A stretch of 37,129 nucleotides of DNA from a virus. Taxonomy: Duplodnaviria > Heunggongvirae > Uroviricota > Caudoviricetes. Under the pieces are notes generated by a model, which saw only the letters and a program-made list of their open reading frames with translations, searched no databases and was not told the origin of the DNA. Position numbers and translations under genes: made by a program. Below, one piece after another: positions 3,407-8,598 of this stretch. The stretch is from positions 1 through 37,129 of the IMG/VR virus record IMGVR_UViG_2872174743_000010; one strand, written 5' to 3'. Numbering within the stretch: the stretch's first letter is position 1; every line of letters starts with the position of its first letter.

Positions 3407-3680
3407 ATGAGCAGAAAAAACCAACGTTACTCTAAAGAGTTCAAAGCCGAAGCTGTCAGAACGGTTCTTGAAAATCAACTTTCGATCAGTGAAGGCGCTT
3501 CCCGATTATCCCTTCCTGAAGGCACTTTAGGACAATGGGTTACCGCCGCCAGAAAAGGGCTCGGTACTCCTGGTTCCCGCACGGTGGCTGAACTGGAATC
3601 TGAAATTCTGCAACTGCGTAAGGCGTTAAATGAAGCTCGCCTTGAGCGATATATATTAAAAAAAGCAACAGCGTATTTTG
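3407..3680 (+). pseudogene. IS600 OrfA, truncated at the IS66-family insertion point
   Basis: MSRKNQRYSKEFKAEAVRTVLENQLSISEGASRLSLPEGTLGQWV...ILKKATAYF; contains the A-rich slippery run TTAAAAAAAG; reading continues into the IS66 inverted repeat (GTAAGCG at 3681). Confidence 0.8.
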
Positions 3681-3766
3681 GTAAGCGTAAACTGACCGCC
3701 GTATGTAGCCATTAAGCCTGTATTGGTAACGTAGGTGCCCACCTTTTCAACTAGTGGACACCTGTT

Positions 3767-4186
3767 ATGGAACAGAAAGCATTATCTGCAGAACCCCGCA
3801 GATCATTTTCAAATGAGTTTAAACTTCAAATGGTTAAACTGGCTTCACAACCAGGAGCCTCTGTTGCCCGTATTGTCCGGGAACACGATATCAATGATAA
3901 CCTGCTGTTCAAATGGCTCAGGCTCTGGCAGAACGAAGGGCGCATATCGCGGCGTCTTCCGGTAACAACCTCTTCTGACACTGGCGTTGAATTATTACCT
4001 GTGGAGATAACGCCGGATGAGCCGAAAGAACCGGTGGCTGCTCTTACTCCGTCTTTATCTACTCAGACTACAGTTAGTGCCAGCTCCTGCAAGGTGGAGT
4101 TCCGTCACGGTAACATGACGCTGGAAAATCCTTCACCAGAGCTGCTCACAGTGTTGATCCGTGAACTGACCGGGTGGGGACGATAA
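3767..4186 (+). CDS. tnpA: IS66-family accessory protein TnpA
   Basis: 139 aa with ...FSNEFKLQMVKLASQPGASVARIVREHDINDNLLFKWLR..., the IS66 orf1 pattern; stop overlaps the next gene. Confidence 0.85.
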   Translation: MEQKALSAEPRRSFSNEFKLQMVKLASQPGASVARIVREHDINDNLLFKWLRLWQNEGRISRRLPVTTSSDTGVELLPVEITPDEPKEPVAALTPSLSTQTTVSASSCKVEFRHGNMTLENPSPELLTVLIRELTGWGR

Positions 4187-4533
4187 TCTCACTCCCGTCA
4201 GGCACCCGCATCTGGCTCGTTGCTGGGATAACCGATATGCGTAAGTCTTTCAACGGGCTGGGTGAACAGGTACAGCATGTGCTGAATGATAATCCCTTCT
4301 CCGGTCACCTGTTCATCTTCCGTGGCCGACGGGGTGACATGATTAAAATCCTGTGGGCTGATGCTGATGGTCTGTGCCTGTTCACCAGACGCCTGGAGGA
4401 AGGCCAGTTTATCTGGCCTGCTGTGCGTGACGGCAAGGTATCCATTACCCGCTCGCAACTGGCAATGCTCCTCGATAAGCTGGACTGGCGTCAGCCAAAA
4501 ACATCCCGCCTTAACGCACTGACAATGTTGTAA
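4174..4533 (+). CDS. tnpB: IS66-family TnpB (orf2)
   Basis: GTG start overlapping the tnpA end; ...GTRIWLVAGITDMRKSFNGLGEQV...GHLFIFRGRRGDMIKILWADADGLCLFTRRLEEGQFIWP. Confidence 0.85.
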   Translation: MGTIISLPSGTRIWLVAGITDMRKSFNGLGEQVQHVLNDNPFSGHLFIFRGRRGDMIKILWADADGLCLFTRRLEEGQFIWPAVRDGKVSITRSQLAMLLDKLDWRQPKTSRLNALTML

Positions 4534-4563
4534 AAATGTCATGGCCGGATTATAAAAACGGCC

Positions 4564-6156
4564 ATGAATCAAAAATACCTCATTCGCATTGCAGAACTGG
4601 AATGCCAGCTCCGTCAGAAAGACCAGCAACTGAGTCTGGTTGAAGAGACGGAGGCCTTCCTGCGCTCTGCACTGGCCCGCGCCGAAGAAAAGATCGAAGA
4701 AGATGAACGGGAAATAGAACATCTGCGGGCTCAGATAGAAAAACTGCGCCGGATGCTGTTCGGTACCCGTTCTGAAAAACTGCGTCGTGAAGTTGAACAG
4801 GCTGAGGCCCTGCTGAAACAACGCGAACAGGACAGTGATCGTTACAGTGGGCGGGAAGACGATCCGCAGGTTCCCCGCCAGTTGCGACAGTCTCGTCATC
4901 GTCGCCCGTTACCGGAGCATCTGCCCCGCGAAATAAATCGCCTGGAGCCAGAAGAAAGCTGTTGCCCGGAGTGTGGCGGTGAGCTGGATTATCTGGGGGA
5001 AGTCAGCGCAGAACAACTGGAACTGGTGAGCAGCGCTCTGAAAGTGATCCGCACAGAACGGGTAAAAAAAGCCTGTACAAAATGTGACTGCATCGTTGAA
5101 GCACCGGCACCATCCCGTCCGATAGAGCGTGGTATCGCGGGCCCGGGGTTACTTGCCCGCGTGTTAACGGGAAAATACTGCGAACACCTGCCACTGTATC
5201 GTCAGAGTGAAATTTTTGCCCGTCAGGGTGTCGAACTGAGCCGTGCATTACTCTCCAACTGGGTTGACGCGTGCTGCCAGTTAATGACGCCGCTGAATGA
5301 TGCTCTGTACCGTTATGTGATGAACAGCCGCAAAGTTCACACTGATGACACACCAGTAAAAGTGCTGGCACCGGGCAGGAAGAAGGCGAAAACAGGATAT
5401 ATCTGGACGTATGTCCGGGATGACAGGAATGCCGGTTCGCCAGAGCCTCCGGCGGTCTGGTTCGCCTACTCACCGGACCATCAGGGTAAACATCCGGAGC
5501 AGCACCTTAGTCCCTTCCGGGGTATCCTGCAGGCAGATGCGTTTAATGGTTACGATCGGCTGTTCAGTGCCGAACGAGAAGGCGGCGCGTTGACGGAAGC
5601 AGGATGCTGGGCTCATGCGCGGCGCAAAGTCCACGATGTATATATCAGTACCAAAAGCGCGACAGCGGAAGAAGCCCTGAAACTAATCGGTGAGCTGTAC
5701 GCCATCGAGCACGAAATACGCGGGTTGCCGGTGTCTGAACGCCTGGCGGTCAGGCAAATGCAGAGTAAACCGCTACTGACTTCCCTGTATAAGCTGATGC
5801 AGGAGAAAGAACAGACGTTATCGAAAAAATGCCGTCTGAGAGATGCGTTCCGGTATATCAGGAAGCACTGGGTTGCGTTGTGCAACTTCAGTGATGATGG
5901 TCTGGCTGAGGCGGATAATAATGCCGCGGAAAGAGCGCTTCGTGCAGTCTGTCTCGGAAAGAAAAACTTTATGTTCTTCGGCAGCGATCACGGTGGAGAG
6001 CGTGGTGCGCTACTGTACGGGCTGATCGGCACCTGCCGACTGAACGGTATCGATCCGGAAGCGTATCTGCGCTATATCCTGAGCGTACTGCCGGAATGGC
6101 CTTCCAACCGTGTTGACGAACTCCTGCCATGGAACGTAGCACTCACCAATAAATAA
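4564..6156 (+). CDS. tnpC: IS66-family transposase TnpC
   Basis: 530 aa; coiled-coil N-terminus, CCPECGG zinc motif, DDTPVKVL, WAHARRK, ADNNAAERALR and [15 protein letters not shown] motifs, all characteristic of IS66 transposases. Confidence 0.9.
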   Translation: MNQKYLIRIAELECQLRQKDQQLSLVEETEAFLRSALARAEEKIEEDEREIEHLRAQIEKLRRMLFGTRSEKLRREVEQAEALLKQREQDSDRYSGREDDPQVPRQLRQSRHRRPLPEHLPREINRLEPEESCCPECGGELDYLGEVSAEQLELVSSALKVIRTERVKKACTKCDCIVEAPAPSRPIERGIAGPGLLARVLTGKYCEHLPLYRQSEIFARQGVELSRALLSNWVDACCQLMTPLNDALYRYVMNSRKVHTDDTPVKVLAPGRKKAKTGYIWTYVRDDRNAGSPEPPAVWFAYSPDHQGKHPEQHLSPFRGILQADAFNGYDRLFSAEREGGALTEAGCWAHARRKVHDVYISTKSATAEEALKLIGELYAIEHEIRGLPVSERLAVRQMQSKPLLTSLYKLMQEKEQTLSKKCRLRDAFRYIRKHWVALCNFSDDGLAEADNNAAERALRAVCLGKKNFMFFGSDHGGERGALLYGLIGTCRLNGIDPEAYLRYILSVLPEWPSNRVDELLPWNVALTNK

Positions 6157-6249
6157 GCGTCAATACGGTGCTCCGTTGACGCCTGATATGACTTTCCGTG
6201 TCAAACCGGAATCTCTAATTTTGACGATTTTCTTTTTAGGTTTAATTCC

Positions 6250-6435
6250 CTGAGGGCGACGTAGCAGTAAATCCGACGGTGAATCACGCTGATATTCGCG
6301 GGTTGGATACCGCATTACAGAGGTCCGTCATATGAGCCTGCCACTTTCTTACGTCGCGAATCAGCTTTGTTCCGCCGTCGCCAAGCGCTAACGTGGGTTA
6401 CTCTTGTACCGGGCTACGTCGCCTTCAGGGAACTG
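6250..6435 (-). ncRNA. Candidate structured non-coding RNA (bridge-RNA-like) in the IS110-family non-coding end
   Basis: Non-coding stretch just downstream of the transposase stop with nested complementarity: CCCTGAGGGCGACGTAGC (about 6248-6265) pairs 17 of 18 with GCTACGTCGCCTTCAGGG (about 6413-6430); GCTGATATTCGCG (about 6288-6300) pairs with CGCGAATCAGC (about 6355-6365); repeated TACGTCGC motifs. Strand and ends are inferred, not shown. Confidence 0.3.
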
Positions 6436-6449
6436 GTTATTCTCATTTT

Positions 6450-7577
6450 TTATTTGTGACATTGTGGTTGTTGTGCGACAGACATTGCTATTCGGCCCAT
6501 ATCCCAGATAAAACCCGCCAGCTCACGTGCAACAGCAACAATTGTAATATTGACATTCTTTCCTTTGGCCTGAAGTTTTCGATACCTCTTACAGAGCCTG
6601 AGTTGAGCATCCCATGCTCTGTCAATGACGGGGCGGGGTAAATTTTCCTGCCTTTTTTGTATTGCCGGACTGATGCGTGCCGGATGACGGTAACTCCACG
6701 CTGCCTCGACCAATAGCTTTCTGGCATAGCTGTTTCCGGCTTTGGTAATGCTGCCCTGATGTCTGCTTCCACCCGATGAATATTCTGATGGCGTGATACC
6801 AAACCATGACATCAGTTGTCGTGGATGTTCAAAACGGGTCAGATCACCCAGTTCAGAAATTAATCCAACCGCAGTAATAAACTGAATCCCTCGCATGGCT
6901 TGCAGCGCCTCTACTACCGGATACAGCCTCCATTCGGTAACGGCCTCCTTCAGGGCGGATTCCAGCCGTTCACATTGTGCCTGCCGGTCTTCTATTGTAC
7001 GACGGTGTTCGTCAAAAGCTAATTGTCGCCAGGGACTTTCGAATGAGTATTTGCTGAGCCAGCGTCGGTGTGCAGGGCCCCAATCTGCTCGCCCGACATA
7101 ATGGACCCCATGAACCAGAAGAAACGATTTCAGACGTTGCCTTGCATGCCGTAAATCATCGCGGGCAGATGCCCATGCCCGGGCCAAATCCCGGAATGCC
7201 TCATCTTCAATGCCGGGTACGTAGACAGCAGAAAGATCTCCTGCACGCAGTGAACGCACAAGTCTGATGGCATCACGGCGATCGGTTTTAACCCGCTCCC
7301 CCGGTTTTTTCGGGATAAGTGAGGGGGCGCAGACCATGCAGTCAAAACCGGATTTCACCAGCCGACGATAAAGTCCATAACCACAGGGCCCCGCTTCATA
7401 AACGATACTGACCTGCGATGACTTTGACCTGAGACGTTTACAAAGATTCTGAATATCAGTAGGTGATGTGCCAATTTTACCCATCAGTTCAACAGGTTCT
7501 GAATTGATAGCATAAGCGACAGTAATCGATTCTTTGTGAACATCTAACCCGACGTACAATGTGTTATTGTTGTTCAT
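6450..7577 (-). CDS. IS110-family transposase/recombinase (DEDD type)
   Basis: Start at the Met of MNNNNTLYVGLDVHKESITVAYA (GGAGG-like RBS upstream); N-terminal RuvC-like DEDD region and C-terminal ...GSITKAGNSYARKLLVEAAW... serine-bearing domain typical of IS110/IS1111 transposases. Confidence 0.85.
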   Translation of the reverse strand: MNNNNTLYVGLDVHKESITVAYAINSEPVELMGKIGTSPTDIQNLCKRLRSKSSQVSIVYEAGPCGYGLYRRLVKSGFDCMVCAPSLIPKKPGERVKTDRRDAIRLVRSLRAGDLSAVYVPGIEDEAFRDLARAWASARDDLRHARQRLKSFLLVHGVHYVGRADWGPAHRRWLSKYSFESPWRQLAFDEHRRTIEDRQAQCERLESALKEAVTEWRLYPVVEALQAMRGIQFITAVGLISELGDLTRFEHPRQLMSWFGITPSEYSSGGSRHQGSITKAGNSYARKLLVEAAWSYRHPARISPAIQKRQENLPRPVIDRAWDAQLRLCKRYRKLQAKGKNVNITIVAVARELAGFIWDMGRIAMSVAQQPQCHK

Positions 7578-7779
7578 GCTGGCCTCCGTGGTGGAAATAC
7601 CGGGGGGTAGCAACAGCTCACCCATGCGGCTCTGACAACGATGTTAACCCGCGTTAAATATCCCACGTTGGCCAGCATCTGTCTCACGGAAAGTCATACT
7701 GCCTTACGTATTTTGCACAGGAGTCGCTGATAAATACGCGTTAATCGAACAATGGCGACAACAATTTCCCATTGAAGCG

Positions 7780-8598
7780 ATGTGTCAGGTATTTGGTGTA
7801 TCCAGGAGCGGTTATTACAACTGGGTACAGCATGAACCCTCAGACAGAAAACAAAGTGATGAGCGGCTAAAACTGGAGATTAAGGTGGCACATATCCGCA
7901 CTCGCGAAACATATGGAACCCGGCGGCTCCAGACGGAGCTGGCAGAGAATGGCATCATCGTTGGTCGTGACCGACTGGCACGTCTTCGTAAGGAGCTAAG
8001 GCTACGCTGTAAGCAGAAACGCAAGTTCAGAGCGACTACGAACCCGAACCACAATCTGCCAGTTGCGCCAAATCTGCTGAACCAGACGTTCGCTCCTACA
8101 GCACCAAATCAGGTCTGGGTGGCGGACCTGACGTATGTTGCCACACAGGAGGGATGGTTGTACCTCGCTGGCATCAAAGATGTTTATACGTGCGAAATTG
8201 TCGGCTACGCCATGGGAGAGCGCATGACAAAAGAGCTGACAGGTAAAGCCCTGTTTATGGCGCTCAGGAGCCAGCGCCCACCTGCCGGGTTAATCCACCA
8301 CTCTGATCGAGGTTCACAGTACTGCGCATACGATTACCGGGTCATACAGGAGCAGTCTGGTCTGAAAACATCAATGTCGCGTAAAGGTAACTGTTACGAC
8401 AACGCTCCGATGGAAAGCTTCTGGGGAACGCTGAAAAATGAGAGCCTGAGCCACTATCGTTTTAATAACCGGGATGAAGCCATCTCAGTAATACGGGAAT
8501 ACATTGAGATTTTCTACAATCGTCAGCGTCGTCACTCTCGTCTGGGGAATATCTCCCCGGCAGCCTTCAGGGAAAAATATCATCAGATGGCTGCTTAA
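7780..8598 (+). CDS. IS600 OrfB (DDE catalytic part)
   Basis: MCQVFGVSRSGYYNWV...VWVADLTYV...HHSDRGSQYCA...NCYDNAPMESFWGTLKNE..., the IS3-family integrase core; the orfB frame is open upstream from about 7648, as expected for an OrfAB fusion. Confidence 0.85.
   Translation: MCQVFGVSRSGYYNWVQHEPSDRKQSDERLKLEIKVAHIRTRETYGTRRLQTELAENGIIVGRDRLARLRKELRLRCKQKRKFRATTNPNHNLPVAPNLLNQTFAPTAPNQVWVADLTYVATQEGWLYLAGIKDVYTCEIVGYAMGERMTKELTGKALFMALRSQRPPAGLIHHSDRGSQYCAYDYRVIQEQSGLKTSMSRKGNCYDNAPMESFWGTLKNESLSHYRFNNRDEAISVIREYIEIFYNRQRRHSRLGNISPAAFREKYHQMAA

Follow-up and report, generated by a model that had tools for sequence, protein, structure and literature searches.

Elements of the IS110 family normally lack terminal inverted repeats, and one that appears to be bounded by a long, perfect repeat inside the end of another insertion sequence raises the question of which bases belong to which element. 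Such an arrangement is found in the window analyzed here, that is, the whole 37,129-nucleotide stretch of a Caudoviricetes record (IMGVR_UViG_2872174743_000010). A sequence-only reading of the locus had left the choice between entry of the element into the loop of an older palindrome in an IS66 right end and subterminal repeats of an IS1111-like subgroup member. We conclude, with a probability of roughly 90%, that the 14-bp repeat represents the subterminal inverted repeats (sTIRs) of ISSso6 (IS110 family, IS1111 group), which has entered an IS66-family element at a point 5 bp inside the tip of the right terminal repeat. ISSso6 is a catalogued RNA-guided insertion sequence, and thus a known kind of element rather than a new one.

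The placement in an IS66 right end was confirmed by the limits of the host element, which carries GTAAGCG at its left end, is flanked on both sides by the 8-bp duplication GTATTTTG (3673-3680 and 7708-7715), and, with the ISSso6 insert subtracted, measures about 2507 bp. The insert divides the right terminal repeat into an inner part that reaches 6181 and a tip, TAC, at 7705-7707. The host features, with genes assigned by Pfam, are as follows.

3681-7707, plus strand: host IS66-family element (Pfam; left end GTAAGCG at 3681)
3767-4186, plus strand: IS66 tnpA
4174-4533, plus strand: IS66 tnpB
4564-6156, plus strand: IS66 tnpC

The identification of an IS110-family element between the arms likewise stood. 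A minus-strand gene encodes a transposase with an N-terminal DEDD (RuvC-like) domain (PF01548, E = 2.7e-11) and a C-terminal Transposase_20 domain (PF02371, E = 8.5e-24), and its translation contains GITPSEYSSG, which fits the IS110-family motif G--P----SG. All 375 of 375 residues are identical to the published ISSso6 protein (source data of Siddiquee et al. 2024), and the DNA is 99.2-99.9% identical to annotated ISSso6 copies from Shigella and E. coli plasmids and chromosomes. The PGAP label reads "IS110-like element ISSso6 family transposase," and Supplementary Table 5 of Durrant et al. 2024 holds the entry "ISSso6 RE IS1111," that is, IS1111 group with the RNA predicted in the right end. 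The name goes back to an element of Shigella sonnei, and ISfinder assigns it to the IS110 family, IS1111 group.

The perfect 14-bp inverted repeat itself is real, with TATGACTTTCCGTG at 6187-6200 as had been reported, and its reverse complement CACGGAAAGTCATA at 7685-7698, one base away from the earlier placement at 7686-7699. With one mismatch allowed, the arms occur only these two times in the 37-kb window, and the chance expectation for 14-bp repeat matches is 0.01 based on dinucleotide shuffles. The repeat is nevertheless not the boundary of the element. Limits were set by comparing empty with filled sites and by the junctions of 12 copies, with the PGAP annotation also used. The empty site reads ...ACG-CT-TAC and the filled site ...ACG-CT-[GA...CTGC]-CT-TAC; because CT alone is common to both, there is no target duplication, and because no context departs from GA and CTGC, both belong to the element. 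The limits proposed from the sequence alone (6201-7685 and 6187-7699) are therefore both wrong, and the true ones (6185-7702 plus one copy of the core, 1520 bp) are listed below together with the components of the two ends. The transposase gene lies on the minus strand, so that the left end of the element is at 7702 and the right end at 6185.

6185-7702, minus strand: ISSso6, 1518 bp, or 1520 bp with one shared copy of the CT core (6183-6184 or 7703-7704)
6183-6184, no strand: core CT (AG on the transposase strand) at the junction of the right end and the IS66 body, the 2-nt overlap of empty and filled sites
6185-6186, no strand: right-end 2-nt extension, GA on the plus strand (TC on the transposase strand), in all copies and all 20 relatives
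6187-6200, no strand: right-end sTIR arm, TATGACTTTCCGTG on the plus strand, kept in relatives
6450-7577, minus strand: transposase/recombinase gene, 375 aa, ATG at 7577, DEDD (RuvC-like) N-terminal and Transposase_20 C-terminal domains
7685-7698, no strand: left-end sTIR arm, CACGGAAAGTCATA on the plus strand, kept in relatives
7699-7702, no strand: left-end 4-nt extension, CTGC on the plus strand (GCAG on the transposase strand), in all copies, NCAG in relatives
7703-7704, no strand: core CT at the junction of the left end and the IS66 tip, from the comparison of empty and filled sites

On the transposase strand, the layout is GTA-AG / GCAG-TATGACTTTCCGTG ... transposase ... guide RNA ... 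CACGGAAAGTCATA-TC / AG-CGTCAAC.

If the element had instead entered the loop of an existing palindrome, the arms would be IS66 sequence and the element would span 6201-7684. This reading draws on the direct contact of the arms with IS66 sequence and on the fact that palindromic repeats, such as REP sequences, are known targets of IS110/IS1111 relatives. However, an uninterrupted IS66 copy with 99.5% identity ends in ...CCGTTGACGCTTAC, with no TATGAC.../...GTCATA, and the ends of ISEc43, IS682, and ISEc23 are the same. The absence of a palindrome from the 99.5%-identical copy refutes its prior existence and supports the subterminal repeat, and the arms moreover accompany the element to non-IS66 sites and are kept in distant relatives with unrelated flanks. 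We regard the loop reading as having practically no chance of being correct.

Scarcely more probable is the reading in which the arms are true terminal inverted repeats of an element at 6187-7698 and the CTG that indeed directly flanks it in the window (6183-6185 and 7699-7701) would be a 3-bp target duplication. The observed empty site reads ...ACGCTTAC and not ...ACGCTGCCTTAC, an empty site with a CTG core was absent from 5,426 E. coli genomes, and both the invariance of GA and CTGC and the restriction of the shared sequence to CT speak against it. A CTG core with the empty site ...CGCTGCCTTAC was also our first working idea, dropped since no such uninterrupted sequence occurred in these genomes; real empty sites read ...CGCTTAC.

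Subterminal repeats that travel with ISSso6 are borne out by its other copies. Both arms and both extensions (GA and CTGC) were present in 12/12 fetched ISSso6 copies, distributed over at least six unrelated target contexts: IS66 right ends with four different outer flanks, an ISEc43 left end, the ospE2-virF region, a sopA pseudogene, the dnaJ-nhaA region, and one other site. Orientation relative to GTAAG/CG... was the same in all of them, and the targets seen were GTA-AG-CGT[C/A/T]AA (IS66-type repeats), GTA-AG-CGCTAA (dnaJ-nhaA), and GTA-AG-CGCTGG. The canonical filled junction, ...GTTGACG-CT-GATATGAC, matched at 100% in 14 listed Shigella/E. coli plasmids. Among relatives whose transposases are 62-81% identical (from Paraburkholderia, Caballeronia, Cupriavidus, Lysobacterales, and Solimonas), TATGACT... 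repeats recur in different flanks and again carry NCAG and TC extensions, with the first base of the left extension varying (G/T/A-CAG). Two further candidates were set aside: a 95.7% variant (H144-H149) considered as a reprogrammed element is a copy truncated at its right end, and a copy thought to share the context of the window (H110) adjoins fimbrial genes and has the canonical junction.

The copy in the window departs from the canonical junction by a single base.

6182, no strand: extra C (6182 or 6183, indistinguishable), making the insert 1521 bp here and 1520 bp elsewhere

The junction without the extra C (...GTTGACGCTGATATGAC...) was found at 100% in the 14 listed Shigella/E. coli plasmids and also in L098, while the extra C was seen only in the window and in L006. 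An IS66 variant naturally ending in ...GACGCCTTAC was considered as the source and rejected, as no such uninterrupted end was found and the same IS66 with ISSso6 usually has no extra C; in the 5,426 E. coli genomes searched, the hypothetical extra-C empty site was as absent as the CTG-core one. With the extra C, in-register pairing with the guide described below falls from 7/8 to 4/8. Among other micro-variants of the junction, L097 has GG for AG, and L053 has one base more than L051. In such variants the flank no longer lines up with the guide, which could lock single copies in place; for the one-base junction variant, the prediction is impaired excision.

The choice of target can probably be traced to the region between the stop codon of the transposase gene and the right-end repeat, which is predicted to encode a structured guide RNA with the following parts.

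6242-6436, minus strand: structured 3' non-coding RNA scaffold (seekRNA / bridge RNA), predicted, conserved
6383-6391, minus strand: guide segment 1, RNA 5'-UUAGCGCUU-3', on the 5' strand of an 11x11-nt internal loop (covariation)
6348-6354, minus strand: guide segment 2, RNA 5'-ACGUAAG-3' (conserved part GUAAG), on the 3' strand of the same 11x11 loop (covariation)

Folding of the RNA region gave a minimum free energy of -88 kcal/mol (z = -5.0), and the scaffold is conserved across 17-20 relatives, with compensatory changes in 13/47 consensus pairs. No Rfam 15 family matched at E<=1 when 6000-7900 was scanned. Within the conserved scaffold, the alignment of relatives shows two hypervariable patches, which lie on opposite strands of one internal loop whose closing stems show compensatory changes. 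Guide segment 1, in the first patch, is complementary to the transposase-sense strand of the core and right target (AGCG[T/C]NAA), while guide segment 2, in the second, is identical to the left target and core (GTA-AG) and would pair with the bottom strand.

Both patches follow the flanks of their own elements. In a fixed register, patch 1 scored 4.53/6 against its own right flank and 2.50/6 against non-self flanks, and patch 2 scored 3.33/5 against its own left flank and 1.55/5 against non-self flanks, with 0/20,000 permutations in each case; two relatives (L014 and L062) had poor patch 1 scores in this register. Among the contexts of ISSso6, the dnaJ-nhaA target GTA-AG-CGCTAA pairs with the guide at 8/8 Watson-Crick positions, and the context GTA-AG-TGAATG (L093/L094) matches the guide on its left side only. 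Taken from sequence and covariation, the guide would specify GTAAGCG[C/T]TAA, the tip of IS66-family terminal repeats, and ISSso6 probably sits in IS66 ends because its guide matches their outer bases.

Segments that would read the donor are less well marked. The candidates AUAUCAG and UACUGC are conserved, but neither covaries with the left extension at its variable first base. A match of AUAUGAC (around 6327-6333) to the donor was discarded, as it falls in a third variable patch that tracks neither targets nor repeats; AUAUCAGCGU (around 6286-6295) was a further apparent match, to the right junction, and AUAUCAG is invariant.

By analogy with ISEc11, ISPa11, ISKpn4, and IS621, the DEDD recombinase would bind this guide RNA, and the element would excise as a circle with abutted ends CACGGAAAGTCATA-TCAGGCAG-TATGACTTTCCGTG (14-8-14). 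The predicted circle junction is ...GTCATATC-AG-GCAGTATGAC..., also given as ...CACGGAAAGTCATATC-AG-GCAGTATGACTTTCCGTG.... The RNA would then align the circle junction with the target GTAAGCG[C/T]TAA, with strand exchange at the core, and the repeats would mark the donor ends that flank the 8-bp crossover region. The right end carries an additional signal:

6199-6204, minus strand: outward-facing TTGACA (-35-like), overlapping the right-end repeat (sequence inspection)

TTGAC is kept in 20/20 relatives, and in the circle TTGACA would lie 17 nt upstream of CAGTAT in the left end, a putative junction promoter of the kind known from ISEc11.

The main value of these results is a correction: the repeat is an expected feature of the family, with the actual ends of the element found 2 and 4 bases, and a 2-nt core, beyond its arms. 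Where annotation pipelines or readers use the repeat as the boundary, ends are misplaced and the remaining IS66 repeat is misjudged. The relatives further amount to a natural reprogramming series, with about 15 targets accompanied by matching changes in the two loop segments, which independently supports the seekRNA / bridge RNA model for the deep-branching ISSso6 clade. The guide would also account for the frequent occurrence of ISSso6 in IS66 ends on the virulence plasmids of Shigella and enteroinvasive E. coli. More tentatively, and with somewhat less than even odds, ISSso6 may be specialized on the terminal repeats of IS66-family elements, with a guide matched to GTAAGCG[C/T]TAA so that the repeat is split 5 bp from the tip and IS66::ISSso6 composites arise at several sites (at least four different outer flanks were found), with micro-variants that could lock copies. 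If so, the element would either hitch-hike on IS66 transposition or repeatedly disable IS66 ends. No published statement of GTAAGCG[C/T]TAA as the target of ISSso6 was found in the literature searched.

Most properties of ISSso6 agree with those of the IS1111 group. In addition to the IS110-family domains and motif, its 14-bp, perfect arms fall within the 7-17 bp (usually 11-13 bp, perfect or near-perfect) of IS1111 subterminal repeats. The group has a longer non-coding region downstream of the transposase gene, with the right end longer than the left, and ISSso6 has 265 nt downstream and 125 nt upstream. Insertion is site- and orientation-specific without target-site duplication. As far as can be read from the sequence, the downstream region would encode an IS1111-type seekRNA with two covarying segments in the expected order: the segment matching the top strand precedes the one matching the bottom strand (5' to 3') and both segments include the core, as in IS1111-type seekRNAs, where the two matches take this order and overlap in the target (Siddiquee et al. 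2024, PMC11187229). The extensions differ, as IS1111-family elements have 7 bp on the left and 3 bp on the right, occasionally 6 and 3 (10 or 9 in total), whereas the GCAG (4) and TC (2) of ISSso6 with the 2-nt core give 6+2 or 4+4, that is, 8 bp between the arms in the circle.

This 8-bp spacer is one reason to consider that ISSso6 and its Burkholderiaceae relatives, with the same mechanism, form a sister lineage outside the IS1111 family in the sense of Partridge, Hall, and Siddiquee, with long repeats and a downstream guide RNA shared ancestrally or convergently. The transposase points in the same direction, with 375 aa compared with 330-350 aa in the IS1111 family and about 17%-25% identity to the IS1111-type transposases in the matrix of Siddiquee et al., and the published tree contains exceptions to the rules on non-coding regions and repeats. 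However, the ISfinder group label tabulated by Durrant et al. 2024 is IS1111, with the RNA in the right end, and the 14-bp repeat, downstream non-coding region, and guide order are all of the IS1111 type; we therefore consider a separate lineage unlikely, though a serious candidate, and retain ISSso6 in the IS1111 group.

Insertion into the terminal repeat of another mobile element has precedents. The 38-bp terminal repeats of Tn21-family transposons receive IS4321 and IS5075 (IS1111 family) at one fixed position (Partridge and Hall 2003, as cited in later work), and these elements resemble ISSso6 in subterminal repeats, in site- and orientation-specific insertion into the terminal repeat of another element, and in the lack of a target duplication. 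They differ in their host, which is other than the IS66 ends (GTAAGCG...) used by ISSso6, in extensions of 10 versus 8 bp in total, and in distantly related transposases, about 22% identical in the published matrix. ISEc21 (IS110 family) also has a natural target inside another insertion sequence, in this case a conserved sequence within IS3-family transposase genes; unlike ISSso6, it has a coding-region target, an upstream non-coding region, and no long repeats.

The bridge RNA of IS621 (IS110 group; Durrant et al. 2024, Hiraizumi et al. 2024) shares with ISSso6 a DEDD recombinase and a structured RNA with two guide segments in an internal loop; around a 2-nt core (CT on one strand), one segment reads the left target half and the other the right, on opposite strands. 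IS621 differs in having its RNA upstream of the recombinase, the reverse guide order, and repeats of no more than 2-3 bp. Its bridge RNA has two internal loops, for target and donor, while in ISSso6 a loop resembling the target-binding one shows covariation and the donor segments are candidates only. ISEc11 (IS1111 family) is the experimental seekRNA model (Siddiquee et al. 2024, PMC11187229; Prosseda et al. 2006) and was our initial guess for the identity of the element, which was rejected on length (1443 versus 1520 bp), transposase (339 versus 375 aa), and target (GTGAAAATACTG versus GTAAGCG[C/T]TAA). ISEc11 and ISSso6 have in common their subterminal repeats, a downstream guide RNA with the same guide order, an outward -35 in the right end that would suit a junction promoter, and an occurrence on pINV-type plasmids.

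The 14-bp inverted repeat is present and perfect, although its second arm lies at 7685–7698, one base away from the 7686–7699 of the sequence-only reading. With one mismatch tolerated, the arm sequence occurs only twice in the 37-kb window (chance expectation 0.01, dinucleotide shuffles). Inside the arms, on the minus strand, is an open reading frame with DEDD_Tnp_IS110 (PF01548) and Transposase_20 (PF02371) domains, whose start was placed at 7577, where the first ATG preceded by a Shine-Dalgarno motif lies.

6187–6200, plus strand: inverted repeat arm at the right end, TATGACTTTCCGTG
7685–7698, plus strand: inverted repeat arm at the left end, CACGGAAAGTCATA, the exact reverse complement of TATGACTTTCCGTG
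6450–7577, minus strand: transposase gene, 375 aa

The transposase equals that of ISSso6 at every residue (sequence from the source data of Siddiquee et al. 2024), and the same DNA is labelled "IS110-like element ISSso6 family transposase" in public records. Judged by this identity, the element is ISSso6 and hence already known. In the leader 5' of the transposase start, minus-strand segments 7576–7612 and 7642–7678 are predicted to pair (AUGCUGGCC with GGCCAGCAU; leader fold −47.4 kcal/mol, z = −2.2), which would hide the start codon along with some of the Shine-Dalgarno sequence and could dampen translation.

The sequence-only reading offered two limits for the element, namely 6201–7685 if it had inserted into a pre-existing palindrome of the IS66 right end, and 6187–7699 if the repeats were subterminal, as in IS1111-like elements. 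The alignment it proposed, of uninterrupted IS66 copies and other copies of the element, was run, and showed that the arms travel with ISSso6 and that the palindrome is absent from IS66. For junction comparison we fetched 12 further ISSso6 copies (L-numbers denote fetched loci).

Sites of the fetched ISSso6 copies
L006, L097, L098: right end of the same IS66 type as in the window, with three more outer flanks
L001: left end of an ISEc43-type IS66 element
L002–L005: pINV ospE2-virF region
L092: sopA pseudogene
L095: dnaJ-nhaA intergenic region
L093, L094: one other chromosomal site

Both arms were found in all 12 copies, as were the GA beyond the 6187 arm and the CTGC beyond the 7698 arm. An uninterrupted IS66 copy (L011), 99.5% identical to that of the window, terminates in ...CCGTTGACGCTTAC, a terminus common to ISEc43, IS682, and ISEc23, and no part of a palindrome was found in any of these ends. 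A pre-existing IS66 palindrome is thereby refuted, since uninterrupted ends lack it and the arms accompany the element in all contexts; the subterminal-repeat reading is right, with arms and extensions constant in 12/12 copies. The canonical filled site reads ...CCGTTGACG-CT-[GA TATGAC...GTCATA CTGC]-CT-TAC, a junction whose 60-nt sequence recurs with 100% identity in 14 Shigella/E. coli plasmids among the matches listed, and its insert is 1520 bp long. Because empty and filled sites have only the CT dinucleotide in common, there is no target duplication. Neither proposed pair of limits survives this comparison: ISSso6 in the window is 6185–7702 plus one CT (6183–6184 or 7703–7704).

Upstream of ISSso6 lie tnpA, tnpB, and tnpC of an IS66-family element, whose left end, GTAAGCG, begins at 3681 and whose right end, ...CTTAC, stops at 7707. 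A perfect 8-bp duplication, GTATTTTG, is found on both sides (3673–3680 and 7708–7715). Based on the end positions and this duplication, the IS66 element spans 3681–7707 and holds ISSso6 within its right terminal repeat. It sits in turn between orfA (3407–3715) and orfB (7780–8598) of an IS3-family element, labelled IS600 in a related record (H118, a database match). As read from the DNA, this is a three-level nest of ISSso6 in an IS66-family element in an IS3-family element.

The 265 nt from the transposase stop codon to the right end fold at −88 kcal/mol (z = −5.0 vs shuffles), and an RNA in the right end of ISSso6 has been predicted (Durrant et al. 2024). Aligning the 3' non-coding regions of 20 relatives revealed a highly conserved scaffold with hypervariable patches, two of which correspond to the element's own flanks and core (CT on the plus strand, AG on the transposase strand).

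6383–6391: patch 1 (guide segment 1), RNA UUAGCGCUU, antiparallel complement of its own element's core and right flank on the transposase-sense strand
6348–6354: patch 2 (guide segment 2), RNA ACGUAAG, same sequence as the left flank and core

With the alignment register fixed and core positions left out, patch 1 scored 4.53/6 on self versus 2.50/6 on non-self flanks and patch 2 3.33/5 versus 1.55/5; in neither case was the self score reached in 20,000 permutations. RNAalifold (16 sequences) placed the patches facing each other across one 11x11-nt internal loop, with compensatory changes at 13 of 47 consensus pairs. Along the RNA, the segment matching the top strand is 5' of the one matching the bottom strand, with the core common to both, an order and overlap also reported for IS1111-type seekRNAs (Siddiquee et al. 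2024, PMC11187229). Two conserved candidate donor segments are AUAUCAG (right end plus core) and UACUGC (reverse complement of the left end's first six bases, GCAGUA); in the relatives' alignment the latter showed no covariation with the left extension's first base, which varies. A third hypervariable patch on the minus strand (about 6327–6337, AUAUGA in the window; alignment columns about 108–113) follows phylogeny rather than targets, repeats, or extensions.

Together the guides specify GTAAG and AGCG[C/T]TAA, and thus a joint target GTAAGCG[C/T]TAA. IS66-family terminal repeats start GTAAGCGT[C/A/T]AA and pair with the guides at 7–8 of 8 positions, a match that accounts for where ISSso6 sits. 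At the dnaJ-nhaA site, GTAAGCGCTAA, all 8 of 8 positions form Watson-Crick pairs. IS66 ends were not named as an ISSso6 target in the literature collection searched. IS66-type ends ...ACGCTTAC without ISSso6 occur in the window at 3681 (the left end of the very copy bearing ISSso6), 9572, 12012, 17107, and 20236, and since these five stay empty, occupancy is far below saturation. The window, L006, L097, and L098 have ISSso6 in the same place of the same IS66 type, with outer flanks gtattttg, cattaaac, ggaacatc, and ttactttt; either the two elements move together even though the end repeat is split, or IS66 copies have received ISSso6 insertions more than once.

The window junction, ...GTTGACG-C-CT-GA..., has one C (6182 or 6183) more than the canonical one. 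Of the fetched copies, L006 (E. coli FDAARGOS_943 chromosome) alone has it too, and 5,426 E. coli genomes contained no IS66 end bearing this C without the insertion. The extra base shifts the right flank relative to guide segment 1, lowering in-register pairing from 7/8 to 4/8. As excision has been published to need the correct target sequence flanking the donor, weaker excision of the window copy is predicted, and by this analogy the extra C may impair it. Other copies are also irregular. L097 (E. coli C311 chromosome) has GG where the core AG is expected at the right junction, transposase strand. L093 and L094 (E. coli chromosomes), beside genes for a CaiF/GrlA-family regulator and a porin, have a frameshifted transposase gene, a right flank unlike the guide (AG-TGAATG), and a left flank matching it (GTA-AG), reflecting either off-target insertion or later deletion beside the element. 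In a 95.7% identical IS110-family variant on STEC chromosomes (L096 and matches H144–H149), the ISSso6 match breaks off within the non-coding region near window position 6370, beside fragments of another insertion sequence, and the right-end arm was not found.

When one genome per species was searched, 80 loci with relatives came up, among them elements at 62–81% transposase identity in Paraburkholderia, Caballeronia, Cupriavidus, Lysobacterales, and Solimonas. Read on the transposase strand, their repeats start TATGACT..., the left extension is NCAG preceded by AG, and the right extension is TC followed by AG or AA; beyond extensions and core, the flanks are unrelated. Across these relatives, then, the inverted repeat is a lineage feature. 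Four copies of one relative (L018, L022, L024, L027) have their own common target, GCGG[A/T]AG|AATACCA[A/G]CGCAC. Several relatives have AG at the left junction and AA at the right, a pattern that would be compatible with a cut between the core bases if the target core were AA; at the right junction, L053 reads TC-AG-ACGCTT versus TC-AA-CGCTT in L051, the same element. In L046 (Paraburkholderia humisilvae), an internal non-coding deletion has removed most of the guide-RNA 5' domain, both guide patches included. A direct repeat, AACCTGG...AACCTGG, flanks this relative, which may be non-autonomous.

By analogy with ISEc11, ISPa11, ISKpn4, and IS621, the recombinase would bind the 3' guide RNA, and ISSso6 would leave as a circle with junction CACGGAAAGTCATA-TCAGGCAG-TATGACTTTCCGTG, in which the 14-bp arms would stand on each side of an 8-bp crossover region holding the AG/CT core, where recombination with the target would take place. 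TTGACA is present at 6199–6204 on the minus strand, with TTGAC kept in all relatives, and the circle junction would set it, perfect, 17 nt upstream of CAGTAT, a putative arrangement similar to the demonstrated junction promoter of ISEc11.

The inverted repeat belongs to a catalogued element and was known before; what this analysis adds is modest, namely a target rule, a natural series of covarying relatives, and the junction variants. ISSso6 resembles the IS1111 group, to which ISfinder assigns it in the table of Durrant et al. 2024, in repeat length, downstream RNA, guide order, lack of duplication, and site specificity. However, its extensions are 6+2 (or 4+4; total 8 bp) rather than 7+3 or 6+3, and its transposase has 375 rather than 330–350 aa and is only about 17–25% identical to IS1111-type transposases (published matrix). 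Like ISSso6, ISEc21, found in IS3 transposase genes, is one insertion sequence targeting another, and the nearest behavioural analogue is IS4321/IS5075, which occupies terminal repeats of Tn21-family transposons.
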